A stretch of DNA of 64,000 nt, from NCBI GenBank assembly GCA_013153895.1, contig JAADDN010000168.1:17049-81048 (forward strand), written 5' to 3'. The translations under genes and the position numbers were made by a program. Within the stretch, counting starts at the first letter, position 1; the number at the start of each line of letters is the position of its first letter. The notes beneath the pieces are model-generated. The model ran no database searches. It had not been told where the DNA came from and saw only the letters and a list, made by a program, of their open reading frames with translations. The stretch is from Thermoproteota archaeon (GTDB taxonomy: Archaea; Thermoproteota; Thermoprotei; Thermoproteales; Thermocladiaceae). This document shows, in pieces, positions 1 through 64,000 of this stretch.

Positions 1-3000
1 TTGTTCCTCAGAATAACTGCATATACCTTCTTCATTACGAAGAATCCTCTAGGAACAGAAAGTACAGTAACATTTACAGTCGTTCCAGTACGTAGACCAG
101 TGACGACAGCTATACCGCTCTTGTTCGTCTCTTTAATAATCTTCCTGGATCCATATATCACTGCTAGCTTGACATTACTTACAGGCTTCTTATCTACTGG
201 ATTCACCGTATATATTACCAGGATAGCCGTCTTGTTAACTGTTGGTGGAGGTGCATATGTAGGTATTATATATTTCAGATATATTCCATGTGTAACAACT
301 ATATTGCTCCATGAATGAGTAAAGACTTTTCCATCAACATGTGCAACAACAGTAATATTTATACGCACTCCAGCTTTCACATACGTCTCATACTTTCCTT
401 CACTGTCCGTCTTTCCACTTATTTTTCCTCCACTACTTGTCACTATCGTTACATCGGCTCCCTGGAATGGTGTACCATCCTCATACATTACCATAACAAT
501 TACAGGATACTTACTCACATGTCTACCCGTTACTGCTGGAGGTGCTCCACCTCCTCCAGTTACTCCTCCCCCACTTACTCCTCCACCTCCTCCACTGATC
601 GATATTCCTCCATTGCTTACAAGTGCTACATTTATTATAGTTGTCCTATTTGTTACATATATTGTTGATTCATATGGTGAATAACTATCATATGATACAT
701 CTATCTCATATTTATTAAACATTTTTACTATGAATACAGCTATTCCACTCGTGTTCGTCTTCTCACTCTTTATCTTTACAAATCCAGGTAATGCATATAC
801 TGTCACTGTTGCATTGGCAATATTCTTTCCACTATATGGATCATATACATGTACTATCAAGAGAGCTGGTCCATGTTTTGCAGGTGGTAATGTGACCCAT
901 GTCTTATATATGTCATTGCTTTTTACTGCGTCATATTCTGCATGTATTATCTTTGCTACTACTATAAGTATAGTATTGTTATATTTTGCTGATAATATAG
1001 GAAGATACTGCAGCATCTTAGACACAACACCTGCAATAGGTACTCTAGGACTAAGAGTAACATGGTCTCCATATGCTGTAAAGTTGACTGTAGCGTTCCC
1101 AAGATCATAGGCTATGTAGAGGCTACCATTAATGTTTGCTCCTAGATAGAAGTGGAAGAGAACACTGACGTTCTGTGTGACAGTGCTATACACGGCTACA
1201 CGTACATCATGTGGAATAGTGCTATAGGTCAATGAGCCATTTATGAAGATCCTCACAATACCTACATCTAGTGGCAATGTTCTCCATACTGTGAAACTAT
1301 ATACGCTACCTGGAACTAGGTAGCCTCCACCTAACTGAACTATGAGGCTTCTATTATAGGTTATGAAGTAGTCCAGTGTCATGTTCCTAAACTTTCTAGT
1401 ACCGTTCAGATTGAATAATGAACCATAGTGTACATATGCTTGCCATATTGTACTGTTACCAAATATCATACCTATCTTCTTTTCAAGACTCTTATTCACC
1501 CATGCTATACCACTCATAGCTGTCTTACCAATCTTCCAGTAATACTCAATGAAATATGCAGGAGATGGAATAGCAAAGATACCAATCTTCTCGACCCTGA
1601 ATACTGTGTTCTTTGGAGCCTTCTTCGGAGGATAATACACTAACTCGCATCTGTATCCTGCCTTGCTCATGTTTCCATAACTTACAGGTGTGCAATTTCT
1701 AATAAACAGGAACGTGGTTATCACCTTACCGTTAATAATAAAGTGTTGTAACCCAGTAACAATAAACCTTCTTAAAGGAACACTGAAATATATTGTACAT
1801 TCCGCATAATGTTTCTCAGGCACACATGTCACATTACTGATCAAGTTACCGTACTTAACCTTCAACATATTCTCAACTATCTGTGCAATAACTTTCGGAT
1901 CCTTAATCACATTATATTTAATGTATATTGCTGCAATGTGTGTAATAGCTCTGAATCCATCATAGAAATATGTTGGATTTGTATGAAACACATTATGAAG
2001 ACCCGCATATATTAACTGCCCTAGAGCACCGAAGAACCCCTGCGTATATGTAGTGAAGACAAATACTAGAGTGCCCGTTCCAAGTATCTCATCTGGATAT
2101 AGTGGTCCACTATCAGTCTCTATTACATAGGACCCATTTACTAGACGTATCGCTAAACTGCCAGCAAACCTGTAATAGCCTGGTGTGTTACTGCTAGTTA
2201 TTACATGTGTAGTAATTATATCATAGAGAAGCTTCTTCACATCATCTGCCGATACTCCACGTATCCTTACTGCTAGGTTATTCTGTATCTTAGATATTAT
2301 ATCGTTTAAATGATCACCAAAAACCATATATATACCACAATGTGTTCCGCTTGGTGAATATGCACCCCAACATGCATCTACTAACACATATGGTATTGTT
2401 ACGACACCATAGAACACTGTTCTTCCAAAGATCCACTCTGGGTGATATATCGCGTTTCCAACAACGTCTCCTAGAATTATTGCGAGAGTAGCTATACCTC
2501 CTGCCTGTGCGAGCCTACTTCCAAGTATCTCCTGTGCTATCTGTCTCAGTGTTATACCTGGAAAGAGCGCCGATATTGAGAATGTGACTCCAATCTTCTT
2601 ATGTTCTTTCTCAAATTTCTTGAGTATCTTGTCAATGTACTCTCCTTCTGCTGCTTTCATCCAGTACTTCCATATTCCTAATGCTCTGCTTCTAACATTG
2701 TCTAGATATGCTCTATTACTCATCAATCTATCCCACATTTTTATACAGTCCTTCTTTGTCATGTTCTCTCCAAGACATATCTTAACTATATCAACAGCAT
2801 CGTGATTAAGAACAGACATAACAACAGCCTTCCATAATGGAGCTAATCCACGTGGGAATCCTATAGGTAACGCAGTAAGGTACCGCCATGATGATCTTGG
2901 AACAGGAAATACACCACCAATAGTAACAACAGGATCGCCCTTACCTGGAGATACTGCAGGCTCAACAAGCTTGAGCTTATCTGGATGATCAATCATATTT

Positions 3001-4763
3001 ATTAGATCATTAACCATTTCAGTACTTAACAGAGCATTAATAGATATCTCATTTCTAGACTTGACAATTCTCCACTTTATTCCTGTGATTAATGCCCCAG
3101 GGGGAGCCCAAGCACCTGTTAAAGCGTGTGTTAAAGATGATTCAAGAAGAAATGATACAATATGAAACTCAAGTGCTGCAGCTCCATTAGAGAATGCTAC
3201 TCCGCTAACAACTGCAGGTGGGAACACTATGTCTACTGTTGGTGCCCCTGGAAGTACAAACCTTACATGGCTATTAATCTCTATTGACGGGAAGGAATAT
3301 GTCAGCCACATCCACTTTACAGAGATGTCTTTTACTCCTGTCTCAGCAAAATAATCATTAAACAAGATATCTACCGAGCCAACACGTACTCCTCTAAGGT
3401 ACTGACCATAATCCACCGTCTCTACATGCGCACTAACATCTTTATGTAGCCCCCATCCCCATGTTGTCGCTCCATACGCAAAAAGATGCACGTACCCAAA
3501 AGTCCTATAGACCACTCCTCTAGCTTCTGTAACCTTTATCTTAAATCCAGTAATAGCAAGACTATAGTTCCTACCCTCAAAACCAGATAACCTATTCACC
3601 AACGCGGTCAAGTTACCATTAAACGGAATCTCTAGATCACCCCAAACAAACAACGTAGGGCGGGTAATATTAGTCTCAACAGCTAGGTACACTCCTGTAG
3701 TAGTTGAAATAATTATATCACGAATACCTATACTCGAGATCCATATAGGTATGCCACTCACTTTAAAGTAAGATATCTGATAAACATTTCCATTACTAAT
3801 AGTATAAACATGAACAATACCTTCTCCATCCCCCGCTATTATATATGTATTATTTCCTTCTTTAACAGTTCTTACAACATAGAAACTTCCAGGTTCTCTA
3901 AATACTACTCCGAATGTTGGTGTAAGCACATATAGACCATTCATAGAAGCAACAACAATATATCTATTGTCTATAGTTTTAATATCCTGTATAAATCCTC
4001 CTAGATATGTTTTATCTACTATATCTAAAGATGGAGATACTTTAAGCAACCATCCATCATATGAACCAGCTAGTAAGTACCCACCTATGCTAGAAAATGC
4101 ATAAAACTGTGAAGAGAATGGAACAAGCTTAATCATTTTTCCATTAGATGCATCATATACTATAAATCCTTTAGCGGTCTCTAAAGTAGATACTAGGTAT
4201 CCATTCCAATAATAGACTGTATAACCTTCTGAATTGAATGGCAATGTTTTATTCCAGATTAATCTTGTTCCACATATCTTTCCTACTACATGCCCACATG
4301 TTGTTCCAAAGTACACACACCTTCCATCCGTAGTTAACCAGACCCCTTCTAGATCACCTATAAGTACATCTGCCTCTACAGATAATGACGGCAAAGATAT
4401 AGCAAATACATGTCCTTCTCCTGATCCTCCTCTATGAACTGTTGCATATAGTGTATTTCCAAGAAGGAGAAGTTGCCTAGCACGTATCATTGGGGCTTCA
4501 GCTCTAAATGCGAATCCTGGAGCGTTAAGTGTTATACATTTAACTTTTTTTAATGAAGAAATATCTACCATACATATACTTAATGGATATGCATTATATA
4601 TTATATAATTTCCATATACTACATTTGTTGTACTCGGCTTGTCTGATAAAGTATATACAACGTAGTAGAAAAATAATGTATTATTGCTTGCCGTTACTGC
4701 ATGCACCTTACATGCAAGTATTAACAGTATAAGAACAGTTATTACTAGAAGAAGCTTCCTCAT
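1..4763 (-). CDS. Very large secreted surface protein, C-terminus beyond the window (>=1587 aa here): signal peptide, possible beta-propeller region, Gly-rich linker, three prealbumin/CarboxypepD_reg-like repeats
   Basis: Absent from the ORF track because it has no stop inside the window. Manual reverse-strand translation from the ATG at 4763-4761 gives MRKLLLVITVLILLILACKVHAVTASNN... and stays open to position 1, with 2 nt left over. Linker GGISISGGGGGVSGGGVTGGGGAPP. Repeats such as PVIVMVMYEDGTPFQGADVTIVTSSGGKISGKTDSEGKYETYV. Confidence 0.8.
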   Translation of the reverse strand, partial: MRKLLLVITVLILLILACKVHAVTASNNTLFFYYVVYTLSDKPSTTNVVYGNYIIYNAYPLSICMVDISSLKKVKCITLNAPGFAFRAEAPMIRARQLLLLGNTLYATVHRGGSGEGHVFAISLPSLSVEADVLIGDLEGVWLTTDGRCVYFGTTCGHVVGKICGTRLIWNKTLPFNSEGYTVYYWNGYLVSTLETAKGFIVYDASNGKMIKLVPFSSQFYAFSSIGGYLLAGSYDGWLLKVSPSLDIVDKTYLGGFIQDIKTIDNRYIVVASMNGLYVLTPTFGVVFREPGSFYVVRTVKEGNNTYIIAGDGEGIVHVYTISNGNVYQISYFKVSGIPIWISSIGIRDIIISTTTGVYLAVETNITRPTLFVWGDLEIPFNGNLTALVNRLSGFEGRNYSLAITGFKIKVTEARGVVYRTFGYVHLFAYGATTWGWGLHKDVSAHVETVDYGQYLRGVRVGSVDILFNDYFAETGVKDISVKWMWLTYSFPSIEINSHVRFVLPGAPTVDIVFPPAVVSGVAFSNGAAALEFHIVSFLLESSLTHALTGAWAPPGALITGIKWRIVKSRNEISINALLSTEMVNDLINMIDHPDKLKLVEPAVSPGKGDPVVTIGGVFPVPRSSWRYLTALPIGFPRGLAPLWKAVVMSVLNHDAVDIVKICLGENMTKKDCIKMWDRLMSNRAYLDNVRSRALGIWKYWMKAAEGEYIDKILKKFEKEHKKIGVTFSISALFPGITLRQIAQEILGSRLAQAGGIATLAIILGDVVGNAIYHPEWIFGRTVFYGVVTIPYVLVDACWGAYSPSGTHCGIYMVFGDHLNDIISKIQNNLAVRIRGVSADDVKKLLYDIITTHVITSSNTPGYYRFAGSLAIRLVNGSYVIETDSGPLYPDEILGTGTLVFVFTTYTQGFFGALGQLIYAGLHNVFHTNPTYFYDGFRAITHIAAIYIKYNVIKDPKVIAQIVENMLKVKYGNLISNVTCVPEKHYAECTIYFSVPLRRFIVTGLQHFIINGKVITTFLFIRNCTPVSYGNMSKAGYRCELVYYPPKKAPKNTVFRVEKIGIFAIPSPAYFIEYYWKIGKTAMSGIAWVNKSLEKKIGMIFGNSTIWQAYVHYGSLFNLNGTRKFRNMTLDYFITYNRSLIVQLGGGYLVPGSVYSFTVWRTLPLDVGIVRIFINGSLTYSTIPHDVRVAVYSTVTQNVSVLFHFYLGANINGSLYIAYDLGNATVNFTAYGDHVTLSPRVPIAGVVSKMLQYLPILSAKYNNTILIVVAKIIHAEYDAVKSNDIYKTWVTLPPAKHGPALLIVHVYDPYSGKNIANATVTVYALPGFVKIKSEKTNTSGIAVFIVKMFNKYEIDVSYDSYSPYESTIYVTNRTTIINVALVSNGGISISGGGGGVSGGGVTGGGGAPPAVTGRHVSKYPVIVMVMYEDGTPFQGADVTIVTSSGGKISGKTDSEGKYETYVKAGVRINITVVAHVDGKVFTHSWSNIVVTHGIYLKYIIPTYAPPPTVNKTAILVIYTVNPVDKKPVSNVKLAVIYGSRKIIKETNKSGIAVVTGLRTGTTVNVTVLSVPRGFFVMKKVYAVILRN

Positions 4764-10655: not shown

Positions 10656-11516
10656 CTAGCATATTTCAATGCTTAGATTCTTATCAAGCAGATCAAAGTT
10701 CTTGTACACCATGTTTCCACATATGCCTCTTCTAATAGCCTCCTCCATGATCTTCATATGGTTTCCCACACGCAGCTTCTTTGCAAGTACAGCAACTAGT
10801 AGATAGGTTAGGCACTGTATTGACTGGTAGTGGTACTCTCTTACTGTCCTGTTCTTTAATAGTGTAATAGCTATCTTATATATTAATGGTCTAAATTGTT
10901 CATCTACATATTTAACTGCTTCTTCAAGTATTGGAACATACATTATCTCTTCTTTTATATATTTTGTAAACATTTTCTTTGCTTCTGGAAAATATTTATG
11001 ATCTACCCTTATCTTCTTCAGAATATATGTCATAGTCTTATAATGTATTCTAATCTTCTTACTATACTGTACATATAGTATCATCATTATCTTAACAAGT
11101 TTAAGCGTTCTCGTAGGGTCTCTAGTCTCATGTAGGAGACTTTCAACTATTTTTCTAAACGTTTCTAGTGGAATGTCAGATGTCTCTACCCTAATGTTCA
11201 GCATCTCGTTATATGCTCTCAGTGTTGATTCTAGTGCTGTGTCAAGTATTCTCCTTACCTCGTCTTCAAATGTTCTTATTCCTATCTTCTTCTTCTCCTC
11301 TATACTTATCCTGGATCCTATCATTGTTACCTTTGTTCTCTGTATATGCATACGTGCTAGATATTGTTCTGGTGTATATGCTCTTGGTTCTGGATGTTCT
11401 ATGTCTATTACTCTCTCCTGTATCACTGTTCCACAGTTTGTACATATGTATTCTCCTCTCTCTATGTCTAGTACTATTCTATCTGATCCACAGTATGGGC
11501 AGCGTTCTACTGCCAT
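10656..11516 (-). CDS. tfb: Divergent transcription factor B (TFIIB-like)
   Basis: N-terminal zinc ribbon CPYCGS...x...CTNCG, followed by IDIEHPEPRAY (B-reader/linker position) and about 200 aa of helical, cyclin-fold-sized region. GGAG lies 5 nt upstream of the ATG. Confidence 0.75.
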   Translation of the reverse strand: MAVERCPYCGSDRIVLDIERGEYICTNCGTVIQERVIDIEHPEPRAYTPEQYLARMHIQRTKVTMIGSRISIEEKKKIGIRTFEDEVRRILDTALESTLRAYNEMLNIRVETSDIPLETFRKIVESLLHETRDPTRTLKLVKIMMILYVQYSKKIRIHYKTMTYILKKIRVDHKYFPEAKKMFTKYIKEEIMYVPILEEAVKYVDEQFRPLIYKIAITLLKNRTVREYHYQSIQCLTYLLVAVLAKKLRVGNHMKIMEEAIRRGICGNMVYKNFDLLDKNLSIEIC

Positions 11517-11924: not shown

Positions 11925-13532
11925 ATGTTTAACATGGGTCATCTCCGCCATGATCAGGAGAGAGCGGTTTCACATGTATTAAAATGTCTTGAGAGGAGGA
12001 GGGTGACTGTTCTTAGGGCTCCTACAGGTTTTGGAAAGACTCTTACTGGGATCGAGATTGCTAGGAGGTGGGGTGAGTCTACTGTTGTAGCGGTTCGTAC
12101 TAGGAATCAGCTGTCTAGATATGTTGAGGATATGGTATTATTCTATAATGATGTTCCTAGGATTCTTCTTAATAGATTGTTAACATGTTTTAAATATGGT
12201 AGTAACTGTAAGTCATGCTTGTTTAACAATGTTCTTGATAAGAAGGTAATTATCAGTAATAGACTATTTGATCCATATAGTAGAGATGTCTTATACTTTT
12301 TCAGGAGTAGGGGAGCATGTTTGTATAGGTCTTTCACGTCTATTGACTCTAATCTGACTGTCTGTACGTATCCTTTCATTATTCATTCGCGTCTTCGTAG
12401 GAGGATTGGTTCTCCTTCTCTGTTGATTATTGATGAGGCTCATAATATTGAGAATATTACTTCTATTGTCATAGATGTTAATAGGGTTCTGAGATTGTTA
12501 TCAATGTTTCTTGATGTTGTTAAGAGGAGGAGAATACGTGATAGTATGGTTCTTCACTGTATGAATAATGTGATGACCTATATACGGTCTGTTAAGAATC
12601 TTGATCATGTTAGGGAGATTCTTACATGTCTTGAGACAGTTTTCTCGCGTCTCTTCTCTGATTCTTCTCCTCCTCTAGAGCTTGCTGAGCTTTTTGTTGA
12701 GGTTTGTTCATGTTTTGAGACTGTTCTTGAGATGGGTCTGGACTATATTACATATGATAATAACATGTTAATGTTTAGGACTCTTGATCTTGAGATGATT
12801 GGAAGGTTTCTAGAGCAGTTTGATAGGGTTGTCCTCATGTCTGCTACCCTGCCTGATAGATGGTTTCTGCGCCAGGTATGGGGTATAGATGATGTTGAGG
12901 TTATAGATGTTGATTATAGGTATGATAATATTTCTATAAGTATTATACCTGATGTCACGTCTAGATTCTCTAGACGTAGTGTAGAGATGTATCGTTCTAC
13001 TGCTGCTATTCTTGATCGTATAGTGTCTAGGGCTGATAAGAATGTTCTGATCTTCTTCCCATCATATGAATATCTTAGAAACACGGCAAGACACATGAGG
13101 ACCAGGATAGAACAGGTATCAGATATAGGCGAGGCTGTTAAGCTTGCTAGAGAGGGAAAACATGTATATGCAGATGTCATCGGTGGAAGACTTAGCGAGG
13201 GTATAGAGCTTGTGGATAGGGTGAGGAGGACTCTACTTGTTTCTGATCTAACTGTTGTTGGGATACCATATCCAAAATATGATGAATATATGAGAAGACT
13301 GTTGAAAAGGCTTGAAGATAGAGGCATAAGACCAGAAGTATATCTAATAGAGAAGGCTTGGACTGGTGTTAGACAGGCGATAGGTAGAGCATGTAGGTTA
13401 GGATATAGTGGGCATGTAAGAATATGGCTTCTAGATGAGAGGTATAGGTCTGAGATATGGCTTAGAAAGATATATACATTGAGTAGAGATGTTAGGATAG
13501 TACCTGCATGTTCTATAATAGGTCTATCTTAG
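11925..13532 (+). CDS. XPD/Rad3/DinG-family SF2 helicase
   Basis: Motif I APTGFGKT, motif II IIDEAHNIE (DEAH), motif III MSATL, GRLSEGIEL, motif VI QAIGRACR. Four Cys between motifs I and II (TC..NCKSC...AC) fit an FeS domain. Confidence 0.85.
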   Translation: MFNMGHLRHDQERAVSHVLKCLERRRVTVLRAPTGFGKTLTGIEIARRWGESTVVAVRTRNQLSRYVEDMVLFYNDVPRILLNRLLTCFKYGSNCKSCLFNNVLDKKVIISNRLFDPYSRDVLYFFRSRGACLYRSFTSIDSNLTVCTYPFIIHSRLRRRIGSPSLLIIDEAHNIENITSIVIDVNRVLRLLSMFLDVVKRRRIRDSMVLHCMNNVMTYIRSVKNLDHVREILTCLETVFSRLFSDSSPPLELAELFVEVCSCFETVLEMGLDYITYDNNMLMFRTLDLEMIGRFLEQFDRVVLMSATLPDRWFLRQVWGIDDVEVIDVDYRYDNISISIIPDVTSRFSRRSVEMYRSTAAILDRIVSRADKNVLIFFPSYEYLRNTARHMRTRIEQVSDIGEAVKLAREGKHVYADVIGGRLSEGIELVDRVRRTLLVSDLTVVGIPYPKYDEYMRRLLKRLEDRGIRPEVYLIEKAWTGVRQAIGRACRLGYSGHVRIWLLDERYRSEIWLRKIYTLSRDVRIVPACSIIGLS

Positions 13533-15926: not shown

Positions 15927-17315
15927 TTATTCCTCTACTAGTTCTTTCACTGTTCTAATTTTTACTGGTCTGCTGAGTCTCTGGTACCAGTCTCCTCTAA
16001 CCACATTTGCATAATGTCTCAATGTTTCTATCATTGCTTCCCATGATCGCACGTCTAGTAGCACGACGGTGTGCTCCATGTCTCTCCTCCTGTTTGATCT
16101 ATAGTATGACTGTACGTTCACTGCATTGTTCATTATCCGTACCATGTCATATGCTAGGTCTAGATCATCATCACAGTATCCATGTGTCATATACGTAGGG
16201 TCTGCTCCTGTAGGTGTCTGATATAGGCAGAAGATGATGTCTGTATCTGGTAGTGATACTCCTCTGAACCATCTTCCACGTGTTGTCCATATTATTACCT
16301 GTATGTTCTCACCATAGTGTGGCGGTTCTCTACATGATACGTCGCTTCTCACATCTATTCCACGTTCTCTCAACATTTCTTCCAGTCTAAGAGTTATCTG
16401 ATAGTTCTTTGACGCTATTCCAATACTTTTACCCCTATCTACGAGATCTATAACAGTCTCGGCTAGCTCAGGTACCCATCTTGAGGGGCTAAGGTATTTT
16501 CCTGCTCTCTGCTCTATGCCTTCTATACTTGAGAGGTACTGTGGATAGAGCGCATATCTGTCAAGTACCTGTGCACGTATCCCAGCGTAGTATATTGTAT
16601 ATGTCTGTGGAATATTGAAACATGATATGACACGTGGATGCAGTGTAGCAGAGATGAGAACTGTCAGCCGACCTAGAGGAAGCTCAGGACGGTAGAAGTA
16701 GAGGTTTCCGAACTGTATCACGGAACGGAGCACGCGTCTAACAACCTCTCTCCAGTATCTGTCCCTTCTCATGTTTCTTACAGCATGTTCAAGCTCTCTC
16801 CTGGTGAATGCGAGTCTATATAGGTCTGCTAGACTGTCAGCCTCATCTATGACTAGTATAGTACGGTTAAATACTCTACTATTCATAAGATAGAGAACAT
16901 AGAGAAGATTATGAGTCATAACCCATATATGTCCACTACCCTGAAAGAACTCACGTATCTGAGACCTGAACTCGCAGTACGATTCTCCGCATTCACCACA
17001 TGTACGTACAAGATTGTAAAGATATTCAAGAATGTTAGAGCAGTCATGTATGCTATCTCTAACATGTGGACAAGTCTCCTCCTTGCTCCTAATCATCTCT
17101 GCACTATATCCTAGCGATGGTATATACCTCTCCACAAGCCAGTTACGTAGACTACGTAAAGGTACAGAAACTATTAGCCTAGTACCTAGTGCCCTAGCTA
17201 GAAGAATCATAGAGTAGACAACAGTCCTAGTCTTCCCACCACCTGGAAGACCATAGATATTTAATATCTTGTTTCCAAGCCTATACATTGCTATTAGTGT
17301 CCTAGCATTAAGCAT
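15927..17315 (-). CDS. Second, more divergent Rad3/XPD-like SF2 helicase
   Basis: Walker A GLPGGGKT, Walker B LVIDEADSL, ISATL, RGVSLPD. Cys cluster CPHV...DC...CGECGESYC between motifs I and II. Confidence 0.8.
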   Translation of the reverse strand: MLNARTLIAMYRLGNKILNIYGLPGGGKTRTVVYSMILLARALGTRLIVSVPLRSLRNWLVERYIPSLGYSAEMIRSKEETCPHVRDSIHDCSNILEYLYNLVRTCGECGESYCEFRSQIREFFQGSGHIWVMTHNLLYVLYLMNSRVFNRTILVIDEADSLADLYRLAFTRRELEHAVRNMRRDRYWREVVRRVLRSVIQFGNLYFYRPELPLGRLTVLISATLHPRVISCFNIPQTYTIYYAGIRAQVLDRYALYPQYLSSIEGIEQRAGKYLSPSRWVPELAETVIDLVDRGKSIGIASKNYQITLRLEEMLRERGIDVRSDVSCREPPHYGENIQVIIWTTRGRWFRGVSLPDTDIIFCLYQTPTGADPTYMTHGYCDDDLDLAYDMVRIMNNAVNVQSYYRSNRRRDMEHTVVLLDVRSWEAMIETLRHYANVVRGDWYQRLSRPVKIRTVKELVEE

Positions 17316-21082: not shown

Positions 21083-21121
21083 GGTTTATGTATTTTTGTG
21101 ATATACATTAGGGGTCAATTA
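21083..21121 (+). repeat. Iteron-like module, copy 1
   Basis: GGTTTATGTATTTTTGTGATATACATTAGGGGTCAATTA. Confidence 0.7.
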
Positions 21122-21243
21122 ACGTATGATTAAGTGTGTTAGTATTTATAAAAATACATTTAATGCATGCTCAATTAGGTCACTGGGTCTGAGTCTACGT
21201 GTCCGTTGGCTGTGCATTATGGTGTTAATATGTGATTATTATT

Positions 21244-42258: not shown

Positions 42259-42278
42259 CAGATAGATATAGTTAGATC

Positions 42279-43100: not shown

Positions 43101-43130
43101 CATATTAACCCTCTCTATGATTAGTCTACT

Positions 43131-43535: not shown

Positions 43536-43565
43536 CTTATCATTTTTCTACCTGCTATATCAAGC

Positions 43566-45418: not shown

Positions 45419-45440
45419 GTAGGGTAGAGAAGTCTCTCAC

Positions 45441-46904: not shown

Positions 46905-46924
46905 GTCCTATAGATATTATACCT

Positions 46925-48085: not shown

Positions 48086-49795
48086 ATGGACTGGGTTCTC
48101 AGACTATTAGAAGAATGTTACATATATAGGTACTCTACTATAGGTATAGTAGAGACAGGAGATCTGCGTCATAGTATTATTATACTCTTAAAGAAGTGTG
48201 TAAACATTAGAGATGCATTCAAGGATAGTGATGTTCCACTTCCTGAGAGAGTGATCTTCTACTCTGGTACGCAGCTATATGAGCCATATGTTGAGGAGGG
48301 GAGGATAAAGCTTAGAAAGATAAGTCTTGGGGAAGAGAACATATTTCAGAGTGGTGATGATAATATTGTTACACCATTACAGGCACTGTCATATTATAGG
48401 AAGCTTGTATATGAGGAAGGTAGGATACTTATGATATTTTCACTCTATGGCTTTCCTAGAGACAGCATAGTGACTCTCTATCCAATGATCTCTGAGATAA
48501 TTGCTGACCCTAGCCTACAGTATCAGCGTTCTGGATCTATGCTCATATTTATTGTTGATGATAGGGAGAAGCTTGCTCCCTTCATTGGGAACAGTATCCA
48601 TGTTCATGATGAGGTAAGTGATGATGAGATTAGAAGTATAGTTACTAGGTTTAGAGCGAAAATGTCTAAATATGGTTATAGTATAGATGTCTCTGATGAT
48701 AAGATAATTGAATTGTTAAGAGGGTTAGAGTATAAAGATGTTGAGAACATTATTGCAAAGATTGGACAGAAAATGAAGAGTCTTAAACCTGAAGAAGCCA
48801 AAAAGCTCAATATTATCCATGAGATTATAAGTGAGCGTAATAGGATAATCATACAGCAGCTACCGTGTCTAGAACCTATCGAGCCGAAACATGGGTTTGA
48901 AGCAGTGGGAGGATATAGCGATGTTAAGGAGATTGTTCGGAGAACATTTATCAATATATGGAAGCATAGGGACCTGGCTAGAAGTCTAGGAGCAGAGCTT
49001 CCTAAAGGAATGCTCCTCTTCGGTATACGTGGCACGGGTAAGACATGGTTTGTAAAGTGTATGGCTAAGGAGCTTGATCTGCCAATGTATAGGTTCATTA
49101 TAGAGAGCGTGAAGAGTAAATGGTATGGTGAGAGCGAGAGAGCTCTTAGACATGTTTTCAAGATGTTGAGGAAGATACAGCCAGTAATACTCTTCATAGA
49201 TGAGATAGATAAACTGATGACAGAGAGAGGAGGACAGCAGGAGCATGAGGTTTCTAGAGCTCTGAAGAATATTATTCTAGAGGAGATGAGTGAGAAGGAT
49301 GATATAATTCTTATATGTACAACAAACTTTCCTGAACAGCTTGACAAGGCTTTCCTACGTGCTGGACGTATCGATATTAAGCTACCATTCCTATTGCCAG
49401 ATTATGATGCTAGGAGACAGATCCTTGAGATACATACGAGAGTAGTAAGAAAGGTTCCTCTTGACAGGGATGTAAACCTAGACGAGCTAGCTAGAAAGAC
49501 CAGTGGATGGACTGGTGCAGAGATCGAGCAGCTTGTTAAGGAAGCTATAATATATGCGTTAGATGAGGCTGTTAGACGCGGTATAAAGAGGATGAAGGTA
49601 GGTATGAGACATTTCGAGGAGGCGTATAATAATATTGTTGTTGACCGTAAGACACGTGCAGCAGAGCTTGACAGGTTTGTAAACATTGCAAAATCATTGA
49701 CAAGCCATAGAGAGGTGATCAGATATGTAGAGAAGCAGAAGAACATGGTTACAAGCGAGATATCTATAGTAGAGGACAAGACAATATTCCTATAA
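48086..49795 (+). CDS. Classical-clade AAA+ ATPase (CDC48/FtsH/Ycf46-like module) with a unique 270-aa N-terminal region
   Basis: Walker A GIRGTGKT, GESE, Walker B ILFIDEIDKL, sensor-1 CTTN, arginine fingers LRAGRID, TGAEIEQL. Confidence 0.9.
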   Translation: MDWVLRLLEECYIYRYSTIGIVETGDLRHSIIILLKKCVNIRDAFKDSDVPLPERVIFYSGTQLYEPYVEEGRIKLRKISLGEENIFQSGDDNIVTPLQALSYYRKLVYEEGRILMIFSLYGFPRDSIVTLYPMISEIIADPSLQYQRSGSMLIFIVDDREKLAPFIGNSIHVHDEVSDDEIRSIVTRFRAKMSKYGYSIDVSDDKIIELLRGLEYKDVENIIAKIGQKMKSLKPEEAKKLNIIHEIISERNRIIIQQLPCLEPIEPKHGFEAVGGYSDVKEIVRRTFINIWKHRDLARSLGAELPKGMLLFGIRGTGKTWFVKCMAKELDLPMYRFIIESVKSKWYGESERALRHVFKMLRKIQPVILFIDEIDKLMTERGGQQEHEVSRALKNIILEEMSEKDDIILICTTNFPEQLDKAFLRAGRIDIKLPFLLPDYDARRQILEIHTRVVRKVPLDRDVNLDELARKTSGWTGAEIEQLVKEAIIYALDEAVRRGIKRMKVGMRHFEEAYNNIVVDRKTRAAELDRFVNIAKSLTSHREVIRYVEKQKNMVTSEISIVEDKTIFL

Positions 49796-49830: not shown

Positions 49831-50112
49831 ATGGATAAGAGAGATATAGTCCTAAATGATATATCTGAAAGACTTGTAAGCTATATTCTAGCTAACTGGA
49901 GAAGATATGCATATCTAGACAATTCTAACTGTATAAACATGCCGCTTACCAGGATAGCTAAAGAAGTTGTTAATGAGAGAGTTGACAGAGCAACACTTGG
50001 ACAGGCATATTCAAAGGTGAGGGAAAGATTCAGGAAGATGGGTTATAGGGTAGTACTGAAGAGGAGGTGGGCTAAGAATGGTTCTACCTGGATAGAGATA
50101 TGTAGGGACTAG
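49831..50112 (+). CDS. Small basic protein, possibly winged-helix
   Basis: ATG start, 93 aa. LTRIAKEVVNERVDRATLGQAYSKVRERFRKMGY looks HTH-like. Confidence 0.65.
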   Translation: MDKRDIVLNDISERLVSYILANWRRYAYLDNSNCINMPLTRIAKEVVNERVDRATLGQAYSKVRERFRKMGYRVVLKRRWAKNGSTWIEICRD

Positions 50113-51998
50113 CTTAGAACTGTCTTTCTTCTCCTGCTCATGAACTCTGCTCTTCTTCCAGGGTTCCAGTTGCTTATTGGTCTATAGTATCCGACTATTC
50201 TATCCCACTTCTCTATGTTTCTGCTACCACAGTTTGGACATTCATCATATATTCCTGTTAGTACTGTCCAACAGTTTCTACATATTGACTGTACTGGCTT
50301 ATATGCTATATATGGTATGTACGTGCTTCTACATATTTCTGTGACTAGTTTAGCAACTTTCTCAGCTTCTAGATACATTGGTGCATGGATAAACATTACA
50401 TAGCCACCATCGTAGAGCGGCTTGTTCATGAATCTGGGTCTGCATAGCTCGTTCTCTATCCATACCTTCTCCTCTAGTGGGTATATACTATAGTATGGTA
50501 CTGTCTGTGAACTATAGTATAGTTCTATTCTACCTGTCTCTGGATCAACATCACGTGGAATAAACATAAGCATCTTAGGATGATATTCAGCGTCCATCAT
50601 TGCAAGCTTGATAGAAGCCTCCTCAGCAGGTGCCTGCTCTAGATTATATAGTACCTGGTCAGCCTCGGCAAACTCTCTCAACCTCTTCTTAACATGTTCT
50701 AGAACCTTGACAGCATAGTAGACCATCTCCTTTTTAACGTTCCTATCAGGTATGTTCCATGCAGAGTAGAATGGTATGCTGTTGATCTCTGGCAGACCTG
50801 TCCTAGCTAGCTTCATTGTCTCAGAGTCATCATGATTTAGAAGATACATGATTGACATATACTCAGCTATTCCAATAGTAGCAACAGTGTTAAAATATGT
50901 TCTAAACGGGTTAGAGAGCCTATACGGATCATTTAACAGCCATGCAGTAGTCGGGTACAGACCCATCTTATAGAAGTCCAAGTATCTTCTTTTCAGATAC
51001 ATTAACGCGTTTCTACATGTCTCCAATATATCGTCTAGCATTGGAATTATCTTCTCGGGCTCTCCCCTAGATAGCCAGGCTAGTCTAGGCATGTTGATCC
51101 CTATATATCCTATAGATCCTGTAAGTATGACCCATCTCCCAGTCACTGGCACATGCTTCAATATTTCTTGTACATCTATCCTCAATCTACAGCAGAAACT
51201 TAGCGCCTCACCAGGCTCTGAAACGTTTGGATTCATGAAGTAGAATGTTCCTCTCCTAGCTATCAGCTCCCAGAACATTTCCCATAGATCATGCTCTCTC
51301 AGAATCTTGAGAAAGAAGTCTGTAAGATAGACCGAGGGTATTGGAAAGGTTAGCGGTCTTCCATGTGCGTCTCCTCTCATGAAGCTTCTAATAGTCTCTC
51401 CCATGTACTTCACTGCGTTATCTATCATTTCTATTCCTGTACCAATCTTCTTACCACATTTATATACTTCTAATTCTTTTAGAGGTTTCTCACCCATAGA
51501 TATTCCATATATCTCGTTTATGAACATTGACTGGCTGACATATCTACTAGGCTTGTTAACATTATAATGGTAGAACTCTACCATCTGTCTCAGCTCTCTA
51601 TCATCTGTTATGTATGGTGCTGCTGCAATATCAAGATAGTTTAATCCTACTGCTCCTGTACGTTCTTGTGTGAGGTATAGCGCTATATCTAATACATGGT
51701 TCATAAATACTGTACCATATTTAGCACATCTATATGTTAGGCATGTAGTCTCGATCAGTTCTCTCTTACCTATCTCAGTAGCGTTGAACCCTCCGCAGTA
51801 TGGTTCCATCCATCCTCCTGAACGTATCTTAAAAGTATATAATGTTCCTGTTATCTCATATCTATACCATTTATCGTTTATTTTAGCTATTGTTGGAAGA
51901 ATATGATTCTCCCATAGACACCTCTCCTCTAATCCTACTAGAATAGATACTGCTGTTGGCGGTATGTTCGCGTTCCTCTTTATAAGATACTCATCCAT
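50109..51998 (-). CDS. nrdD: Anaerobic (class III) ribonucleoside-triphosphate reductase
   Basis: C-terminal Zn ribbon CRNC...CPNCGS followed by the glycyl-radical motif RIVGYYRPISNWNPGRRAEF. 629 aa. Confidence 0.85.
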   Translation of the reverse strand: MDEYLIKRNANIPPTAVSILVGLEERCLWENHILPTIAKINDKWYRYEITGTLYTFKIRSGGWMEPYCGGFNATEIGKRELIETTCLTYRCAKYGTVFMNHVLDIALYLTQERTGAVGLNYLDIAAAPYITDDRELRQMVEFYHYNVNKPSRYVSQSMFINEIYGISMGEKPLKELEVYKCGKKIGTGIEMIDNAVKYMGETIRSFMRGDAHGRPLTFPIPSVYLTDFFLKILREHDLWEMFWELIARRGTFYFMNPNVSEPGEALSFCCRLRIDVQEILKHVPVTGRWVILTGSIGYIGINMPRLAWLSRGEPEKIIPMLDDILETCRNALMYLKRRYLDFYKMGLYPTTAWLLNDPYRLSNPFRTYFNTVATIGIAEYMSIMYLLNHDDSETMKLARTGLPEINSIPFYSAWNIPDRNVKKEMVYYAVKVLEHVKKRLREFAEADQVLYNLEQAPAEEASIKLAMMDAEYHPKMLMFIPRDVDPETGRIELYYSSQTVPYYSIYPLEEKVWIENELCRPRFMNKPLYDGGYVMFIHAPMYLEAEKVAKLVTEICRSTYIPYIAYKPVQSICRNCWTVLTGIYDECPNCGSRNIEKWDRIVGYYRPISNWNPGRRAEFMSRRRKTVLS

Positions 51999-52055
51999 GT
52001 GTTTATAATAGGTTATGCGATATTAAAGCGGGATCTATGATGGTTAAGTGAGTAG

Positions 52056-52063
52056 TTTATATA
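52056..52063 (+). promoter_or_regulatory. TATA box
   Basis: TTTATATA centred 27 nt upstream of the ATG at 52087. Confidence 0.5.
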
Positions 52064-52086
52064 CCCTAACACTCATCTACGGTAAC

Positions 52087-53268
52087 ATGAGTTCGAAAGT
52101 TGTTGAGAAAGAGAAGAAGACACGGGCACGGGCTAGAATAAGGGTGAAGAAGAGTAATGATGTTATTGCTAAGATTCTGGATGTAGCCTTTCCTGTAGGT
52201 GATATCCAGCTTGACCATAGTATAGAGGTACGCTCAGTATATCATCTATATGAGATGATGAAGCGTGGAGTAATATACATTGATCCAGATCTCCAGCGTG
52301 GATACGTATGGGATGATGTTAAGGCTAGCCTCTTCATCGATAGTCTCTATCGTGGATATCCTGTCCATATGATACTCCTAGCCAGGCTAGGTAAAGATAG
52401 GTACACTGTGATAGATGGTGTACAGAGACTAGTAACTATTAGAAGGTTCTTCGATAACGAGCTCAGAATACTGAAAGTATCTGTAATCCATCCAGATATA
52501 CGTGGAAGAAGCTTCTCATCGCTTAAACATGATATCCGTGAGAAGTTTGTTACCTCTATATCCATGCCCGTATGCTTTATAAATCTTGGCAATCTAGATG
52601 AGAAGGCTATATCTGTAATAACAGATATGCTGCGTAGAGTAAACATTAGTGAGCAGAAGATGACTACAATGCAGGTAATATTCTGTACATTTAAGACACC
52701 TAGTATACAGCTTATAAAGAGAATGTCAGAATATGAGAACTATAGAAAACTTCTAAAGTTCACTGAAAGTGAGATAAAGGCAATGTATGATAAGGTTCTT
52801 CTAATGAACCTTGCAATATCTGTACATAGTGGAAAGGTAGTATACTTACAGGGATACTGTTTCAGGTCAAGCATGCCATACTTCTCAAAGTTCATACTGG
52901 AGAACGATGAGAAGAAGCTTAGAGATGTTGAACAGTGGATAAAAGATATTATAGATACATGTATAGAGCTTGGACTAGAGAGGAAACATTTCACCACATC
53001 CTACTATGGTCTCTCACGTGCTATGAGAGAGGTAGTGTCGAAGTGGATCTTCACTGCTATAACGGTAGCATTGTTCAGACTGTTACGTGAACATGATAGG
53101 GAGGAGGTTATAAAGAGGAGGGAGGAGCTTGTTAGAGCTATCGAGGACTATTTCAGGAATATTGACAAGACATTATATGTACATGTTCTACGTGCATCAT
53201 CTATAGATCATATAGCTAAGATAGTTGATGGTCTGTACATGAGGTTAGAATCTGTTTTCAAGTCATAA
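52087..53268 (+). CDS. DUF262 (ParB-like/GmrSD N-terminal type) protein without a recognisable nuclease domain
   Basis: IDPDLQRGYVWDDVKASLFIDSLYRGYPV...YTVIDGVQRLVTIRRFF matches the DUF262 signature. The track ORF begins at GTG 52048, and I prefer the ATG at 52087 given the TATA position. Confidence 0.8.
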   Translation: MSSKVVEKEKKTRARARIRVKKSNDVIAKILDVAFPVGDIQLDHSIEVRSVYHLYEMMKRGVIYIDPDLQRGYVWDDVKASLFIDSLYRGYPVHMILLARLGKDRYTVIDGVQRLVTIRRFFDNELRILKVSVIHPDIRGRSFSSLKHDIREKFVTSISMPVCFINLGNLDEKAISVITDMLRRVNISEQKMTTMQVIFCTFKTPSIQLIKRMSEYENYRKLLKFTESEIKAMYDKVLLMNLAISVHSGKVVYLQGYCFRSSMPYFSKFILENDEKKLRDVEQWIKDIIDTCIELGLERKHFTTSYYGLSRAMREVVSKWIFTAITVALFRLLREHDREEVIKRREELVRAIEDYFRNIDKTLYVHVLRASSIDHIAKIVDGLYMRLESVFKS

Positions 53269-60964: not shown

Positions 60965-61807
60965 ATGTTTATTGATTTAACAGGTATCGAGCTCAAGATT
61001 CCAGTCTTTGCCAGCTCTCTTCCATGCTCTGTCTATTATCCCTATGTTCTCACTCATGTTAACTCTATTGATCGTGAATATAGGTACATGATTAAGGCTA
61101 GGCTGATCATATTAGATATTAATGTTCATAGATTCACAAGAATAGGAGACTATCCTATAAGAGAGCTAGCACGGTACTACTATACTGCTAGAAGCCTTGC
61201 TAGAAGACTGGGGGAGAGGCTGATTATCGTGCTTCCTGATCTTCCATGGGATGACTATTTTAGAGGAACTAGATACATAGATAATATACGTAGAACATAT
61301 ACATACCATTACGCATTGATTAGCAGAATAGTTGAAATATGTAGGAAATACGGTTCAAAGATGATGCCAGTAATACAGCATAGACATAGTCTAGATACGG
61401 TAACAAGATCATCACTCTATGTCCTGGACATAGCTGAGAGATATAGAGACTATATATATGGTATAGGAATAGGAAGCCTCTGCGTATCTAGAAGCATTAG
61501 AAAGATAGTCAACATAGTTAACACTGTTAGATGGGTACTAGGATATGACTATAGACTACATCTCTTCGGAGTATCTATACGCGTGCTCGACCATGTTAAA
61601 GACAGGATAAGTATAGATAGTACAGGCTGGACAAGACCAGTAGATGAAGCAACATGGAGAACAGTAGAAGGAAAGAGAAGATCGTGCACAAGCGAGAGAG
61701 CGAGAACAGTATATTTCCTACTATGGATAAGAAAGATACTTGAGAAGCTTGGACAGGATGTAGATATTGTCGATAAATATATTAATATGATAATAAAAAG
61801 ATTTTAA
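60965..61807 (+). CDS. Minimal tRNA-guanine transglycosylase superfamily protein (DpdA-like candidate)
   Basis: The ordered motifs KIPVFASS, LIILD, VLPDLPW, MPVIQHRH, YGIGIGSL, RLHLFGVS and SIDSTGWTRP parallel ArcTGT motifs TPAIMPV, DSGSFQ, LDIPTP, ATIQGS, PIGGV, VHLFGAG and LFDSASY. There is no CxCxxC zinc motif and no PUA domain. Confidence 0.6.
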   Translation: MFIDLTGIELKIPVFASSLPCSVYYPYVLTHVNSIDREYRYMIKARLIILDINVHRFTRIGDYPIRELARYYYTARSLARRLGERLIIVLPDLPWDDYFRGTRYIDNIRRTYTYHYALISRIVEICRKYGSKMMPVIQHRHSLDTVTRSSLYVLDIAERYRDYIYGIGIGSLCVSRSIRKIVNIVNTVRWVLGYDYRLHLFGVSIRVLDHVKDRISIDSTGWTRPVDEATWRTVEGKRRSCTSERARTVYFLLWIRKILEKLGQDVDIVDKYINMIIKRF

Positions 61808-62543: not shown

Positions 62544-62900
62544 ATGGTACTGTTTATTAGTTTTCTCATGGTTCTCTATGTTATGGATGTTGGAGATGTT
62601 CTAGATATTGTTGAGAGGACTAGTATGGAGCTGTTTATGAGGAAGCTTACTGAACGGTTGTCTAAAATGTGTAGGAGTGTTAGTATTGTTGGTACAGAAG
62701 TTATAGGTGATGACTGTATAACCTGTAGTGACCTGCGTAGGCTTGGGGGCGAGTCGTTTAAGGCTGATGCAATGTTTGTAGAGGAGGATTATTATCCAGA
62801 TATTGTTAATATTCGTACAAGATTTATAGGGAAGATAAAAGTTGAAAAGGGAGAGAACATGTTTATGATAGGTATAGAGTTTCCAGGTGAGAGGATATGA
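62544..62900 (+). CDS. Right-cassette P1' protein
   Basis: First gene of the right cassette. The start is uncertain: ATGs at 62544, 62568 and 62583, with GTTTATAGTT only about 10 nt upstream of the first. Confidence 0.65.
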   Translation: MVLFISFLMVLYVMDVGDVLDIVERTSMELFMRKLTERLSKMCRSVSIVGTEVIGDDCITCSDLRRLGGESFKADAMFVEEDYYPDIVNIRTRFIGKIKVEKGENMFMIGIEFPGERI

Positions 62901-63229
62901 ACTGTAATGTTCTTAGGACTCTTGCTGAGAAGCTGAGTGGAAAATTTTTCGAGAATGAGAGTGCATGTGTTGTATATTTTGACCGTCCTGTGAGGGCTAG
63001 GGCTGTTGTTGATTTTGATAGTGTTTCATATAGGGTTAATAATATTTTTCTTGAAGATGTTGATAATGTTTCTATTAATTCTGATATAATGTACATGTTT
63101 ATGACTGATGTGGAGGCTAAGGAATATGGTATAGCTGTTACTAGTGATAGAGTAGATATATATAGGGTCAGCGGTAATGTTCGTAGGATCGTAATTGATA
63201 AGAGGATTGGAAAGATGTATATGTTATGA
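62897..63229 (+). CDS. Right-cassette P2' (paralog of 9420-9755)
   Basis: ATGA coupling and the shared N-terminal motif. Confidence 0.8.
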   Translation: MNCNVLRTLAEKLSGKFFENESACVVYFDRPVRARAVVDFDSVSYRVNNIFLEDVDNVSINSDIMYMFMTDVEAKEYGIAVTSDRVDIYRVSGNVRRIVIDKRIGKMYML

Positions 63230-63540
63230 GGCTTGAAGAGCTCTGTAACATGTTTGGTGGAGAGTATAGGGATGGGATGTGTATTATTAAGAATTTTGTA
63301 ACATCTGAAAAATATCTGGATGCTACTGATAGTATTACTCTGAGGAATAGTGATATTCTAATAATTAGGAAGCCGTTTGGTGAGATAGTTAGTTCTGATA
63401 AGCCTATTATAGTTGCATTCAGCGATAAGTTGAATGTTTCTGAATATGGTCCATACTATATCTATGATATGGTTATTGGAGAGTCTGGAAACTATCTCAT
63501 TATTCTGCTTCCCGAGAAGGTGCGTAAGGTGGTGAGATGA
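63226..63540 (+). CDS. Right-cassette P3' (paralog of 9082-9423)
   Basis: ATGA coupling and the shared motif. Confidence 0.8.
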   Translation: MRLEELCNMFGGEYRDGMCIIKNFVTSEKYLDATDSITLRNSDILIIRKPFGEIVSSDKPIIVAFSDKLNVSEYGPYYIYDMVIGESGNYLIILLPEKVRKVVR

Positions 63541-63953
63541 GTCTTGGAGGGATCCTATCTAGGTTGGAAATGTTTGACAGGTTCTGCCGTTCTGTTAATG
63601 GTGTTCCAGAGTATAGGGTGGAGATATCTATGAGTAGTAGCAGTATTGAGTTCAGTACAGGTAGGCTGGATGAGGTTGAGAGCAGGATTAGTCGTCTTCA
63701 TCTTGAGAATGCTAGGAGATTTAACATGTATATAACTGCGTCATGTATAGTGTCGGGGATAGTTCCGACAGCTGAGATAAGTTCAAGATTTGACGCTCCT
63801 GTTGATGGTGTTGGCAGGTTAGCGATCTATTATAACAGGAAGAGGTATGATTATGGTGTTGGTAAGCTGAGATGTATGTATGGTATATATAAATTTAATG
63901 ATAGGAGTTATGATAATGAGAGCTGTAGTCTAAGTATAATAGAGGGTGAGTAG
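63537..63953 (+). CDS. Right-cassette P4' (paralog of 8636-9085)
   Basis: ATGA coupling and KRYDYG. Confidence 0.8.
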   Translation: MSLGGILSRLEMFDRFCRSVNGVPEYRVEISMSSSSIEFSTGRLDEVESRISRLHLENARRFNMYITASCIVSGIVPTAEISSRFDAPVDGVGRLAIYYNRKRYDYGVGKLRCMYGIYKFNDRSYDNESCSLSIIEGE

Positions 63954-63956: not shown

Positions 63957-64000
63957 TGAACAGTGAGAAGATTAGGAAAACAGTTGAGGAAGCGTTTGAG
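63957..64000 (+). CDS. Right-cassette P5', N-terminal fragment running off the window
   Basis: ATG at 63957 gives MNSEKIRKTVEEAFE. Not in the track because it has no stop. It resembles the start of 7930-8643. Confidence 0.5.

Follow-up and report, generated by a model that had tools for sequence, protein, structure and literature searches.

Nature of contig C189

The DNA analysed here is a 64,000-nucleotide stretch (the window) of the archaeal assembly GCA_013153895.1 and corresponds to bases 17049-81048 of contig C189 (90,611 bp). We conclude that C189 is an autonomous mobile genetic element. Five independent lines of evidence indicate that it is not part of a chromosome: the content of its flanks, its homologs elsewhere in the genome bin, its tetranucleotide composition, its absence from related genomes and a clustered regularly interspaced short palindromic repeat (CRISPR) spacer directed against it. 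That C189 is a mobile element of some kind can be held with great confidence; its single most likely form, for which the case is about evenly balanced, is a large virus with double-stranded DNA that belongs to an undescribed family. The element works in the manner of a large virus or an episome, but it is not a member of any described family tested, and what is new here is an archaeal mobile element of an undescribed family. A preliminary description, made from the letters of the window, had read it as a large virus, provirus or megaplasmid and not as core chromosome, and this reading is supported, as the refutation tests that it had named favoured a mobile element.

C189 is the longest of 205 contigs in a genome bin of 1.79 Mb, the next longest being about half its length (46 kb). 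The bin is 87.75% complete and shows 0.32% marker contamination. An RpoB fragment from the bin was 99% identical to that of one metagenome-assembled genome (MAG) labelled 'Thermoproteota archaeon', 92-95% identical to those of several 'Thermoproteaceae' and 'Thermoproteales' MAGs, approximately 81% identical to Vulcanisaeta and 76-77% identical to Pyrobaculum, and most of the sequence was contained in only one public run, which was labelled as a hydrothermal vent metagenome. The host can therefore be placed as an uncultured member of the Thermoproteales that lives at a hydrothermal vent and belongs to a sister genus of Vulcanisaeta, which agrees with the anaerobic thermophilic archaeon proposed earlier. 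Gene calling gave approximately 88 real open reading frames (ORFs) in the window and 116 on C189, with a coding density of 92%.

No transfer RNA (tRNA) or transfer-messenger RNA gene was found by ARAGORN in the window or its flanks, and no Rfam family was found at the gathering score. The Pfam search, which covered approximately 80 ORFs, returned no ribosomal-protein, translation or central-metabolism family, and no housekeeping family was present among the top 25 families listed for each of PHROGs and NCBIfam, which were run on all 116 ORFs of C189. The earlier claim that the window lacks ribosomal RNA, tRNA, ribosomal-protein and central-metabolism genes was thus upheld. The flanks, 17 kb on the left and 9.6 kb on the right, contained a MoxR ATPase, a weak match to a VWA domain, a serine recombinase, an RNA ligase and ORFans. 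Housekeeping genes, which the preliminary description had named as the flanking content that would point to a chromosome, were found in neither flank.

Matches elsewhere in the bin were found by tblastn for 10 of the 116 ORFs, and all 10 belonged to widespread families. The host carries its own copies of the anaerobic ribonucleotide reductase NrdD, 42% and 32% identical to the NrdD of the element. On the first principal component of tetranucleotide composition, nine of nine 10-kb chunks of C189 lay between +0.007 and +0.016, compared with -0.0015 +/- 0.0044 for the other contigs; all nine were therefore 2-4 standard deviations off the rest of the bin, despite a similar guanine-cytosine (GC) content (37.3% in C189 and 38.2% in the host).

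Bases 1-60000 of the window were absent from 30 genomes of the same family, six congeners among them. The matches seen in these 30 genomes were at most 208 nucleotides long and were confined to the zinc ribbon of the transcription factor TFB and the part of nrdD nearest its 3' end. The primase-polymerase (prim-pol) gene of the element was likewise absent from the genomes of 40 relatives. In contrast, three positive controls from the same bin (contigs C35, C54 and C17) were present in six of six congeners, with 65-86% identity over kilobases. The possibility, raised in the preliminary description, that the ORFans are conserved core genes of the lineage was therefore not borne out. C35 and C54, which resemble C189 in composition, were also considered as parts of the element and were rejected, as both are conserved chromosomal DNA.

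From the CRISPR arrays of the bin, 34 spacers were extracted, and one of them matched the window at positions 17941-17982, inside the prim-pol gene, at 37 of 42 bases. The same spacer matched the metagenomic relative L007 better, at 39 of 42 bases. Its array lies on C17, and the other 6.8 kb of this contig consist of chromosomal DNA that is conserved in the genus. The spacer is therefore one of the host lineage and was acquired from a member of the element family. A match to archaeal CRISPR spacers had been proposed as a check, and a host-linked spacer that targets the element family has now been found. The CRISPR repeat of the host was not found in the six congeners.

As evident from these results, it is very improbable that C189 is ordinary chromosome, either as a lineage-specific variable region or as a mis-binned piece of another organism. 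The GC content close to that of the bin and the low bin contamination could be read in favour of such an origin, but the contamination value says nothing on C189, because the estimate counts marker genes and C189 has none. The 90.6 kb without a housekeeping gene, the absence from six congeners that carry the three control contigs and the host spacer all argue against a chromosomal origin, as do the relatives of the element, all of which are contigs rich in ORFans that differ in gene content. Approximately 5% of this species-level bin is foreign DNA that is invisible to marker-based contamination scores.

Replication module and candidate origin

The prim-pol and the three superfamily 2 (SF2) helicases of the window are listed in Table 1. 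The prim-pol gave no Pfam match, and a search of the whole genome with PF09250 matched contig C138 only, and weakly. An exhaustive profile search recovered just 40 cluster representatives among 1.84 billion proteins. When a profile of 27 prim-pol sequences was used, it matched pRN1 ORF904 with an E-value of 3.4e-5, and the acidic and GGxH motifs were aligned; in particular, ILDLD aligned with ILDFE and TGGYHI with HGGIHI, in the correct order. Among the 27 sequences, D86 was invariant and H116 nearly invariant. The AlphaFold model obtained from the 27-sequence alignment had a predicted local distance difference test (pLDDT) score of 91.5 and superseded an earlier model from six sequences, which had a pLDDT of 55 and no usable structure match. 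The top Foldseek matches of the model were the pRN1 structures 3m1m, 9aam, 1rni and 1ro0, with a probability of 1.00 and a TM-score of 0.54-0.55 (normalised to the prim-pol domain), followed by LigD polymerase domains and the prim-pol of phage NrS-1. Profile, model and structural matches together bear out the prim-pol of the preliminary description, and its three SF2 helicases were identified as XPD/Rad3-like, DEAD-type and Hel308-like proteins.

Upon comparison with pRN1 ORF904 (PDB 1rni, 3m1m and 9aam), the overall arrangement was found to be similar but not identical. Both proteins have an archaeo-eukaryotic primase fold followed by a helix-bundle domain, but their sequence identity is approximately 13%, and the aligned match stops after the prim-pol and helix-bundle part. 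ORF904 has a superfamily 3 (SF3) helicase fused behind the prim-pol. In contrast, the prim-pol of the element ends after the helix-bundle domain, with no fused SF3 (D5-like) helicase, and the helicase is a separate SF2 DEAD-type gene that overlaps it by 8 nucleotides. The Pfam Prim-Pol family misses the gene of the element, and pRN1 is a plasmid of approximately 5 kb, whereas the element is at least 90 kb. The replicase is thus a pRN1-type prim-pol that is uncoupled from the usual SF3 helicase and has an SF2 helicase as its partner; the prim-pol would prime and the SF2 helicase would unwind. Whether virus or plasmid, the element defines a rare, vent-restricted element family.

The kinship with pRN1 also bears on the form of the element. 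A somewhat less likely alternative to a virus is a large non-conjugative plasmid or other non-viral episome that replicates by its prim-pol and helicase, resolves multimers through the serine recombinase, and has cargo for defence, counter-defence and surface remodelling. Among solved structures, the replicase is closest to that of plasmid pRN1, which favours such an episome and weighs against a virus, but prim-pols are equally common in viruses; the prim-pol of the element had 58 viral prim-pol structure matches at an E-value of 1e-3 or better.

The prim-pol gene adjoins a 3.6-kb region that is mostly non-coding (Table 1). Its left arm is A+C-rich and its right arm G+T-rich, ACATTAGGGGTYAATT-like motifs are repeated in both orientations, and a central gene of 154 residues is conserved in L007. 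The cumulative GC skew of C189 formed a broad trough, with plotted values lowest over 37-53 kb, a first low at approximately 37 kb (window position of approximately 20 kb) and a reported minimum at 51 kb. The mirror-image strand composition, the repeated motifs and the first skew low suggest that replication may start in this region.

Stretches of at least 100 nucleotides with at least 85% G+T or A+C were rare in the bin. Examples on C189 were found at window positions 18478-19800 and 20860-22030, and those outside C189 were found at C17:792-943, C97:1074-1217, C111:334-644, C112:239-343 and C54:45-354, where they adjoin CRISPR arrays or contig ends. Some such stretches were 78-84% identical to the arms of the non-coding region over 50-95 nucleotides. 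This sharing may reflect chance low complexity, a common site for a host factor or mimicry of CRISPR leaders.

Relatives of the element in metagenomes

Five close relatives of the prim-pol were found in a collection of 5.8 billion proteins, and four loci were found in Joint Genome Institute (JGI) metagenomes. The prim-pol and helicase pair was present on eight metagenome contigs, and the DEAD helicase followed the prim-pol wherever the contig was long enough. The neighbouring genes vary among the relatives and include a Cas4-like nuclease, a RecA/KaiC-like ATPase, a resolvase, an RNase H-like protein, an AAA+ ATPase and many ORFans. Such a combination of a constant replication core and changing cargo is what one would expect of a family of mobile elements.

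Contig L008 was 98.7% identical to window 12956-22336, and L007 was 66-91% identical over the aligned segments and retained the 3.6-kb non-coding region. Comparison of L007:244-617 with window 22998-25476 revealed that L007 is without a block of approximately 2.6 kb containing the two Csx3 genes, a P-loop gene and the CCA enzyme gene; as the block is missing at the same place, it is an accessory cassette outside the element core. The closest relative of the NrdD was 55% identical, and the others were at most 40% identical. This closest NrdD lies on L107 beside a GmrSD_N gene and a gene of family A (described below), in synteny with the window. All relatives of the element that are known are short metagenome contigs; among 185,579 GTDB species genomes, none was detected with the prim-pol profile, and no description of the element was found in the literature.

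Nucleotide, RNA, transcription and counter-defence genes

The gene assignments of the preliminary description fared differently in the family searches (Table 1). Its NrdD, its dUTPase-family gene (a dCTP-deaminase/dUTPase-superfamily member) and its TFB gene were all borne out; for TFB, the similarity beyond the zinc ribbon was extended by a 153-residue match to the host TFB on contig C94. The RNA-repair genes stood in part, as the CCA-adding enzyme was confirmed and the ligase-like gene gave weak matches only. For the DNA-modification-like gene, which encodes a TGT-like protein, there was a PHROG match at an E-value of 2e-4 only and no PDB-sequence match. One assignment was not sustained: a 'glutaredoxin-like' gene (55372-55866), for which a CPFC motif is the only sign, had no Pfam or PDB-sequence match. 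A 427-residue ORF (25651-26934, minus strand), elsewhere called a radical SAM enzyme, had no Pfam or PHROG match at an E-value of 0.01 or better, and its C-terminus was 90% identical to L007.

From these assignments, the following roles can be proposed. NrdD and the dCTP-deaminase-like enzyme would supply the deoxynucleotide (dNTP) pool in an anaerobic host, and the divergent TFB could redirect the host RNA polymerase to the promoters of the element. The CCA enzyme and the RNA ligase of the right flank may mend tRNA damage, and the ligase-like ORF of the window is an additional, weak candidate for this role. The GmrSD_N-like and TGT-like proteins might act on modified DNA. Finally, the Csx3 pair is predicted to degrade cyclic tetra-adenylate and thereby blunt type III CRISPR signalling.

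The last prediction recalls the AcrIII-1 viral ring nucleases, in that the mobile element carries two Csx3-family genes and the family scans run on C189 revealed no cas gene. A mobile element that lacks cas genes is also where AcrIII-1 serves as an anti-CRISPR protein. Unlike AcrIII-1, the genes of the element belong to the Csx3 fold family and not to DUF1874, and they are absent from the close relative L007. The element offers a testable case of Csx3 as a counter-defence gene on mobile DNA.

Virus, plasmid or integrated element

Several features lean towards a virus. The element combines nucleotide-pool, RNA-repair, base-modification-like and anti-CRISPR-like genes with approximately 80% ORFans, it encodes a MoxR ATPase and three AAA-type ATPases together with a weak VWA match, its AAA+ ATPase is matched best among viral proteins by gp08 of Acidianus tailed spindle virus (ATSV), and it carries large glycoproteins with shared tails. 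NrdD, dCTP-deaminase-like, RNA-repair and TGT-like genes occur more typically in large lytic viruses than in archaeal plasmids, which counts against the plasmid alternative. Furthermore, no conjugation or partition family was present in the Pfam matches or among the top 25 PHROG and NCBIfam families listed, where weak hits could be hidden, and we counted this result towards a virus. In particular, no ParA-type partition, toxin-antitoxin or VirB4/TraG-type family was detected, and the element differs from the crenarchaeal conjugative plasmids of the pNOB8 type in that VirB4/TrbE-like and VirD4/TraG-like ATPases and a partition system were not among the listed families.

Other results weigh against a virus. 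None of the families run revealed a capsid, nucleocapsid, portal, terminase or packaging ATPase; this search comprised Pfam for approximately 80 ORFs, PHROGs for 116 ORFs (top 25 families listed) and for 20 ORFs individually, NCBIfam for 116 ORFs (top 25), and the folding of one ORF. Capsid proteins of crenarchaeal viruses are often family-specific. IMG/VR contained no relative when queried with the MoxR ATPase, the AAA+ ATPase or the prim-pol, the last both as a single sequence and as a profile. Beyond the AAA+ ATPases (strong for the CDC48-type protein and weak for MoxR), nothing was common with ATSV, and neither a terminal overlap nor a terminal inverted repeat was found on C189, both ends of which are assembly breaks. 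The resolvase-type serine recombinase and the GmrSD_N-like gene, which is also ParB-like, suit a plasmid equally well and are points in favour of one, together with the lack of a virion gene from any library and of a relative in IMG/VR. All of the evidence for foreign DNA fits a plasmid equally.

It is unlikely that C189 is an integrated provirus or genomic island in the host chromosome with junctions beyond the contig ends. Such an origin would be consistent with the two open ends and the lack of any sign of circularity, the serine recombinase gene near the right end, the position of the right-hand break within a gene of which contig C183 has a further copy at its end, and the GC content near that of the host. 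However, no att-like tRNA, chromosomal gene or junction was found in the 90.6 kb, and a search of C189 for att sites and contig termini found neither. C183, which shares the end repeat, is itself not chromosome, because it is non-conserved and targeted by a spacer. The distinct tetranucleotide signature also argues against integration, and the full replication module with its origin-like region suggests autonomous replication.

To our knowledge, no known crenarchaeal virus genome is as large as that of C189 (at least 90.6 kb) would be, should the element prove viral. The viral form of the element can be specified further, though only tentatively: C189 would represent, as its first long fragment, a new family of large viruses that infect marine hyperthermophilic Thermoproteales and have an undescribed capsid type. 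The genome would exceed 90 kb, compared with 62.7 kb for ATV (see below), and would encode a TFB of its own together with an anaerobic ribonucleotide reductase, a set of tRNA-repair enzymes and Csx3 directed against type III CRISPR. A viral C189 would raise the size ceiling of Thermoproteota viruses and would imply a 'jumbo-phage-like' strategy in a hyperthermophilic archaeal virus, comprising dNTP supply, an initiation factor, RNA repair, possible DNA modification (from the weak TGT-like match) and anti-CRISPR.

Comparison with known systems

The element is similar to the Bicaudaviridae and other large tailed spindle viruses, such as Acidianus two-tailed virus (ATV, 62.7 kb) and ATSV (70.8 kb), in that these are large crenarchaeal genomes that consist mostly of ORFans and encode several AAA+ ATPases. 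ATSV also encodes a giant protein of more than 2200 residues, a tRNA nucleotidyltransferase and a polynucleotide kinase, which we counted as a likeness. MoxR and VWA genes occur in bicaudaviruses, although we did not find them in the profile of the International Committee on Taxonomy of Viruses (ICTV). The CDC48-type AAA+ ATPase of the element was 31.5% identical to ATSV gp08 (E-value of 4e-37). When all C189 ORFs were searched against the ATSV genome by tblastn, only AAA+ ATPase matches were obtained, to gp08 and gp56; there was no match to the major head proteins, the DnaA-like ATPase, the integrase, gp36, gp44 or gp93. For ATV, the ICTV profile gives three AAA+ ATPases, and a genome of 62.7 kb is called one of the largest among crenarchaeal viruses (PMC12662068). 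Membership in the bicaudaviruses was rejected, as AAA+ ATPase matches were all that was common with ATSV and the MoxR query matched no archaeal virus. Additionally, the spindle viruses infect terrestrial acidophilic Sulfolobales, in contrast to the marine Thermoproteales host found here, and the element is at least 20 kb larger.

The Globuloviridae and Tristromaviridae, which are viruses of Thermoproteales, share the host order with the element, and no PHROG structural family was among the matches listed for C189. Their enveloped virions contain membrane proteins, which would suit the anchored glycoproteins of the element, and their linear genomes are 16-28 kb. No prim-pol, NrdD or TFB is known to us from either family.

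The Borgs of Methanoperedens resemble the element as archaeal extrachromosomal DNA that encodes mostly hypothetical proteins, was recovered from metagenomes and was linked to its host by CRISPR spacers and composition. They are reportedly linear, with 0.6-1 Mb, long terminal inverted repeats, and surface-protein and metabolic cargo. Unlike C189, Borgs are associated with methanotrophs of a different host phylum, and no inverted repeat was found at the C189 ends, both of which are assembly breaks.

Surface proteins, ORFans and paralogous cassettes

The surface glycoproteins of the preliminary description were corroborated by a signal peptide and a C-terminal membrane anchor in each of three proteins (2298, 881 and 225 residues) and by the sequon density of the 881-residue protein, which has 5.0 N-glycosylation sequons per 100 residues compared with 0.74 overall. 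Two tail motifs were shared among the proteins of the element. The first, [RK]-R-x-M-F-K-[LQ]-[ED], was found in the proteins encoded at window 3-4763, 4803-7448, 55853-56530 and 23351-23641 and in the left flank at L001:12571-12945 and L001:9225-11783, all on the minus strand. The second, [KR]-Y-W-x-x-R-[ED], was found at window 43131-43535, 47745-48032 and 60128-60418 and, on the minus strand, at 56535-57107 and 57983-58555. Both motifs lie at or near the C-terminus, mostly behind a membrane anchor, and the first also ends one soluble Csx3. The tails may be sorting or docking signals, and the large glycoproteins with shared cytoplasmic tails (RRxMFKLE and KYWxxRE) could be envelope or surface proteins that are recruited through them.

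More than 40 ORFans organised in paralogous families had been described earlier. The abundance of ORFans was confirmed, as approximately 70 of the approximately 88 window ORFs had no family match, but BLASTP grouped only approximately 20 ORFs into approximately 10 two-member families, and most ORFans are therefore singletons. Family A, one of two families in a duplicated module, has members at window 40311-41336 and 43566-44567 (both plus strand) and at L107:705-1658 (minus strand), with the invariant motifs TG..C, C.H..AE, RVGS..GHA..ID and YYD.D. On the basis of these motifs, it looks like a metal-dependent enzyme. It had been considered as a capsid candidate and was dropped, as the conserved Cys and His motifs appear enzymatic. 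ESM Atlas look-ups of family A and of the 328-residue ORFan gave no usable match.

Table 1. Features of the window, with positions numbered from its first base.
Feature	Position	Strand	Evidence and remarks
3' part of the gene for a 2298-aa surface protein, beginning in the left flank	3..4763	-	Signal peptide, CarboxypepD_reg, Big_1, C-terminal membrane anchor; tail RRRRKQMFKLE
Membrane-anchored glycoprotein candidate, 881 aa	4803..7448	-	44 N-x-S/T sequons; tail ends RRKMFKQT
Cassette 1, seven small ORFan genes with overlapping stop/start codons	7499..10515	-	Paralog pairs with cassette 2
Divergent TFB paralog	10656..11516	-	Zinc ribbon, E 1.4e-13; cyclin repeats not detected by Pfam
XPD/Rad3-like SF2 helicase	11925..13532	+	Pfam, PHROGs, NCBIfam
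Acidic ORFan, 328 aa	14380..15366	-	Conserved in metagenome relatives L004, L010 and L011
DEAD-type SF2 helicase	15927..17315	-	Pfam; always after the prim-pol gene in related contigs
Prim-pol of pRN1 ORF904 type with helix-bundle domain, 389 aa	17308..18477	-	Profile and fold; carries the protospacer 17941-17982
Mostly non-coding 3.6-kb region, origin or control-region candidate	18478..22133		Composition, repeats, GC skew; conserved in L007 and L008
dCTP-deaminase-like protein, dUTPase superfamily	22134..22640	+	E 2.8e-11
Two tandem Csx3/Crn3 ring-nuclease genes, anti-type-III-CRISPR candidates	22998..23641	-	Pfam, E 3e-13 and 1.5e-8; NCBIfam TIGR02579
Archaeal CCA tRNA nucleotidyltransferase homolog	24340..25476	+	E 2.6e-20
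Minimal ATP-dependent ligase-like protein	27370..28206	-	Weak; E 5.5e-4 and 1.7e-3 only
Hel308/Hjm-like SF2 helicase	30614..32632	-	Pfam, PHROGs, NCBIfam
Duplicated module, family A (341 and 333 aa) and family B (301 and 284 aa)	39997..47710	+	Includes a membrane-anchored S8 subtilase, 45441-46904
CDC48-type AAA+ ATPase	48086..49795	+	Pfam, PHROGs, NCBIfam; best viral match ATSV gp08
Divergent anaerobic ribonucleotide reductase NrdD	50109..51998	-	Pfam, E 9e-78; ATP-cone family not among the Pfam hits
GmrSD_N (DUF262, ParB-like) protein	52048..53268	+	Pfam, PHROGs; adjoins NrdD, as in relative L107
TGT-like protein, candidate for DNA/tRNA base exchange	60965..61807	+	Weak; homolog on L010
Cassette 2, diverged inverted paralog of cassette 1	62544..63953	+	Runs into the right flank and ends at the serine recombinase

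Contig ends and other contigs of the bin

The public contigs of runs X1 and X2 offered no informative joint and no usable loose ends when compared with the left flank. The left flank (L001:1-17048) was covered by public contigs of run X1 at a word depth of approximately 7-8 and with approximately 1-1.5% divergence (for example, 41 differences in 3423 bases), and a close strain variant of the element was therefore present in that sample.

The right end of C189 (L002:9328-9563) and the end of C183 (C183:11802-12034) both break within a gene whose two versions have the same orientation and share 80% nucleotide identity, and the two contigs may border copies of one repeat. C183 is absent from the congeners and is targeted by a spacer in C97. 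Near the right end, a gene for a 70-residue CxxC protein (L002:6190-6402, minus strand; C189:87238-87450) has copies on seven other contigs of the bin with 64-85% identity; because several of these copies lie at contig ends, it is a multi-copy gene that breaks the assembly.

Spacers of the bin also matched contigs of the bin itself at 90-100%, namely C43:19333-19374, C48:1998-2039, C24:5025-5065, C1:7695-7730, C2:1082-1121 and C183:1890-1931, and the bin therefore holds several more targeted or integrated elements. The contigs flagged by spacers or by the shared end had no element-specific gene in common with C189. The protospacer on C24 lies within a homolog of the GmrSD_N gene of the window.

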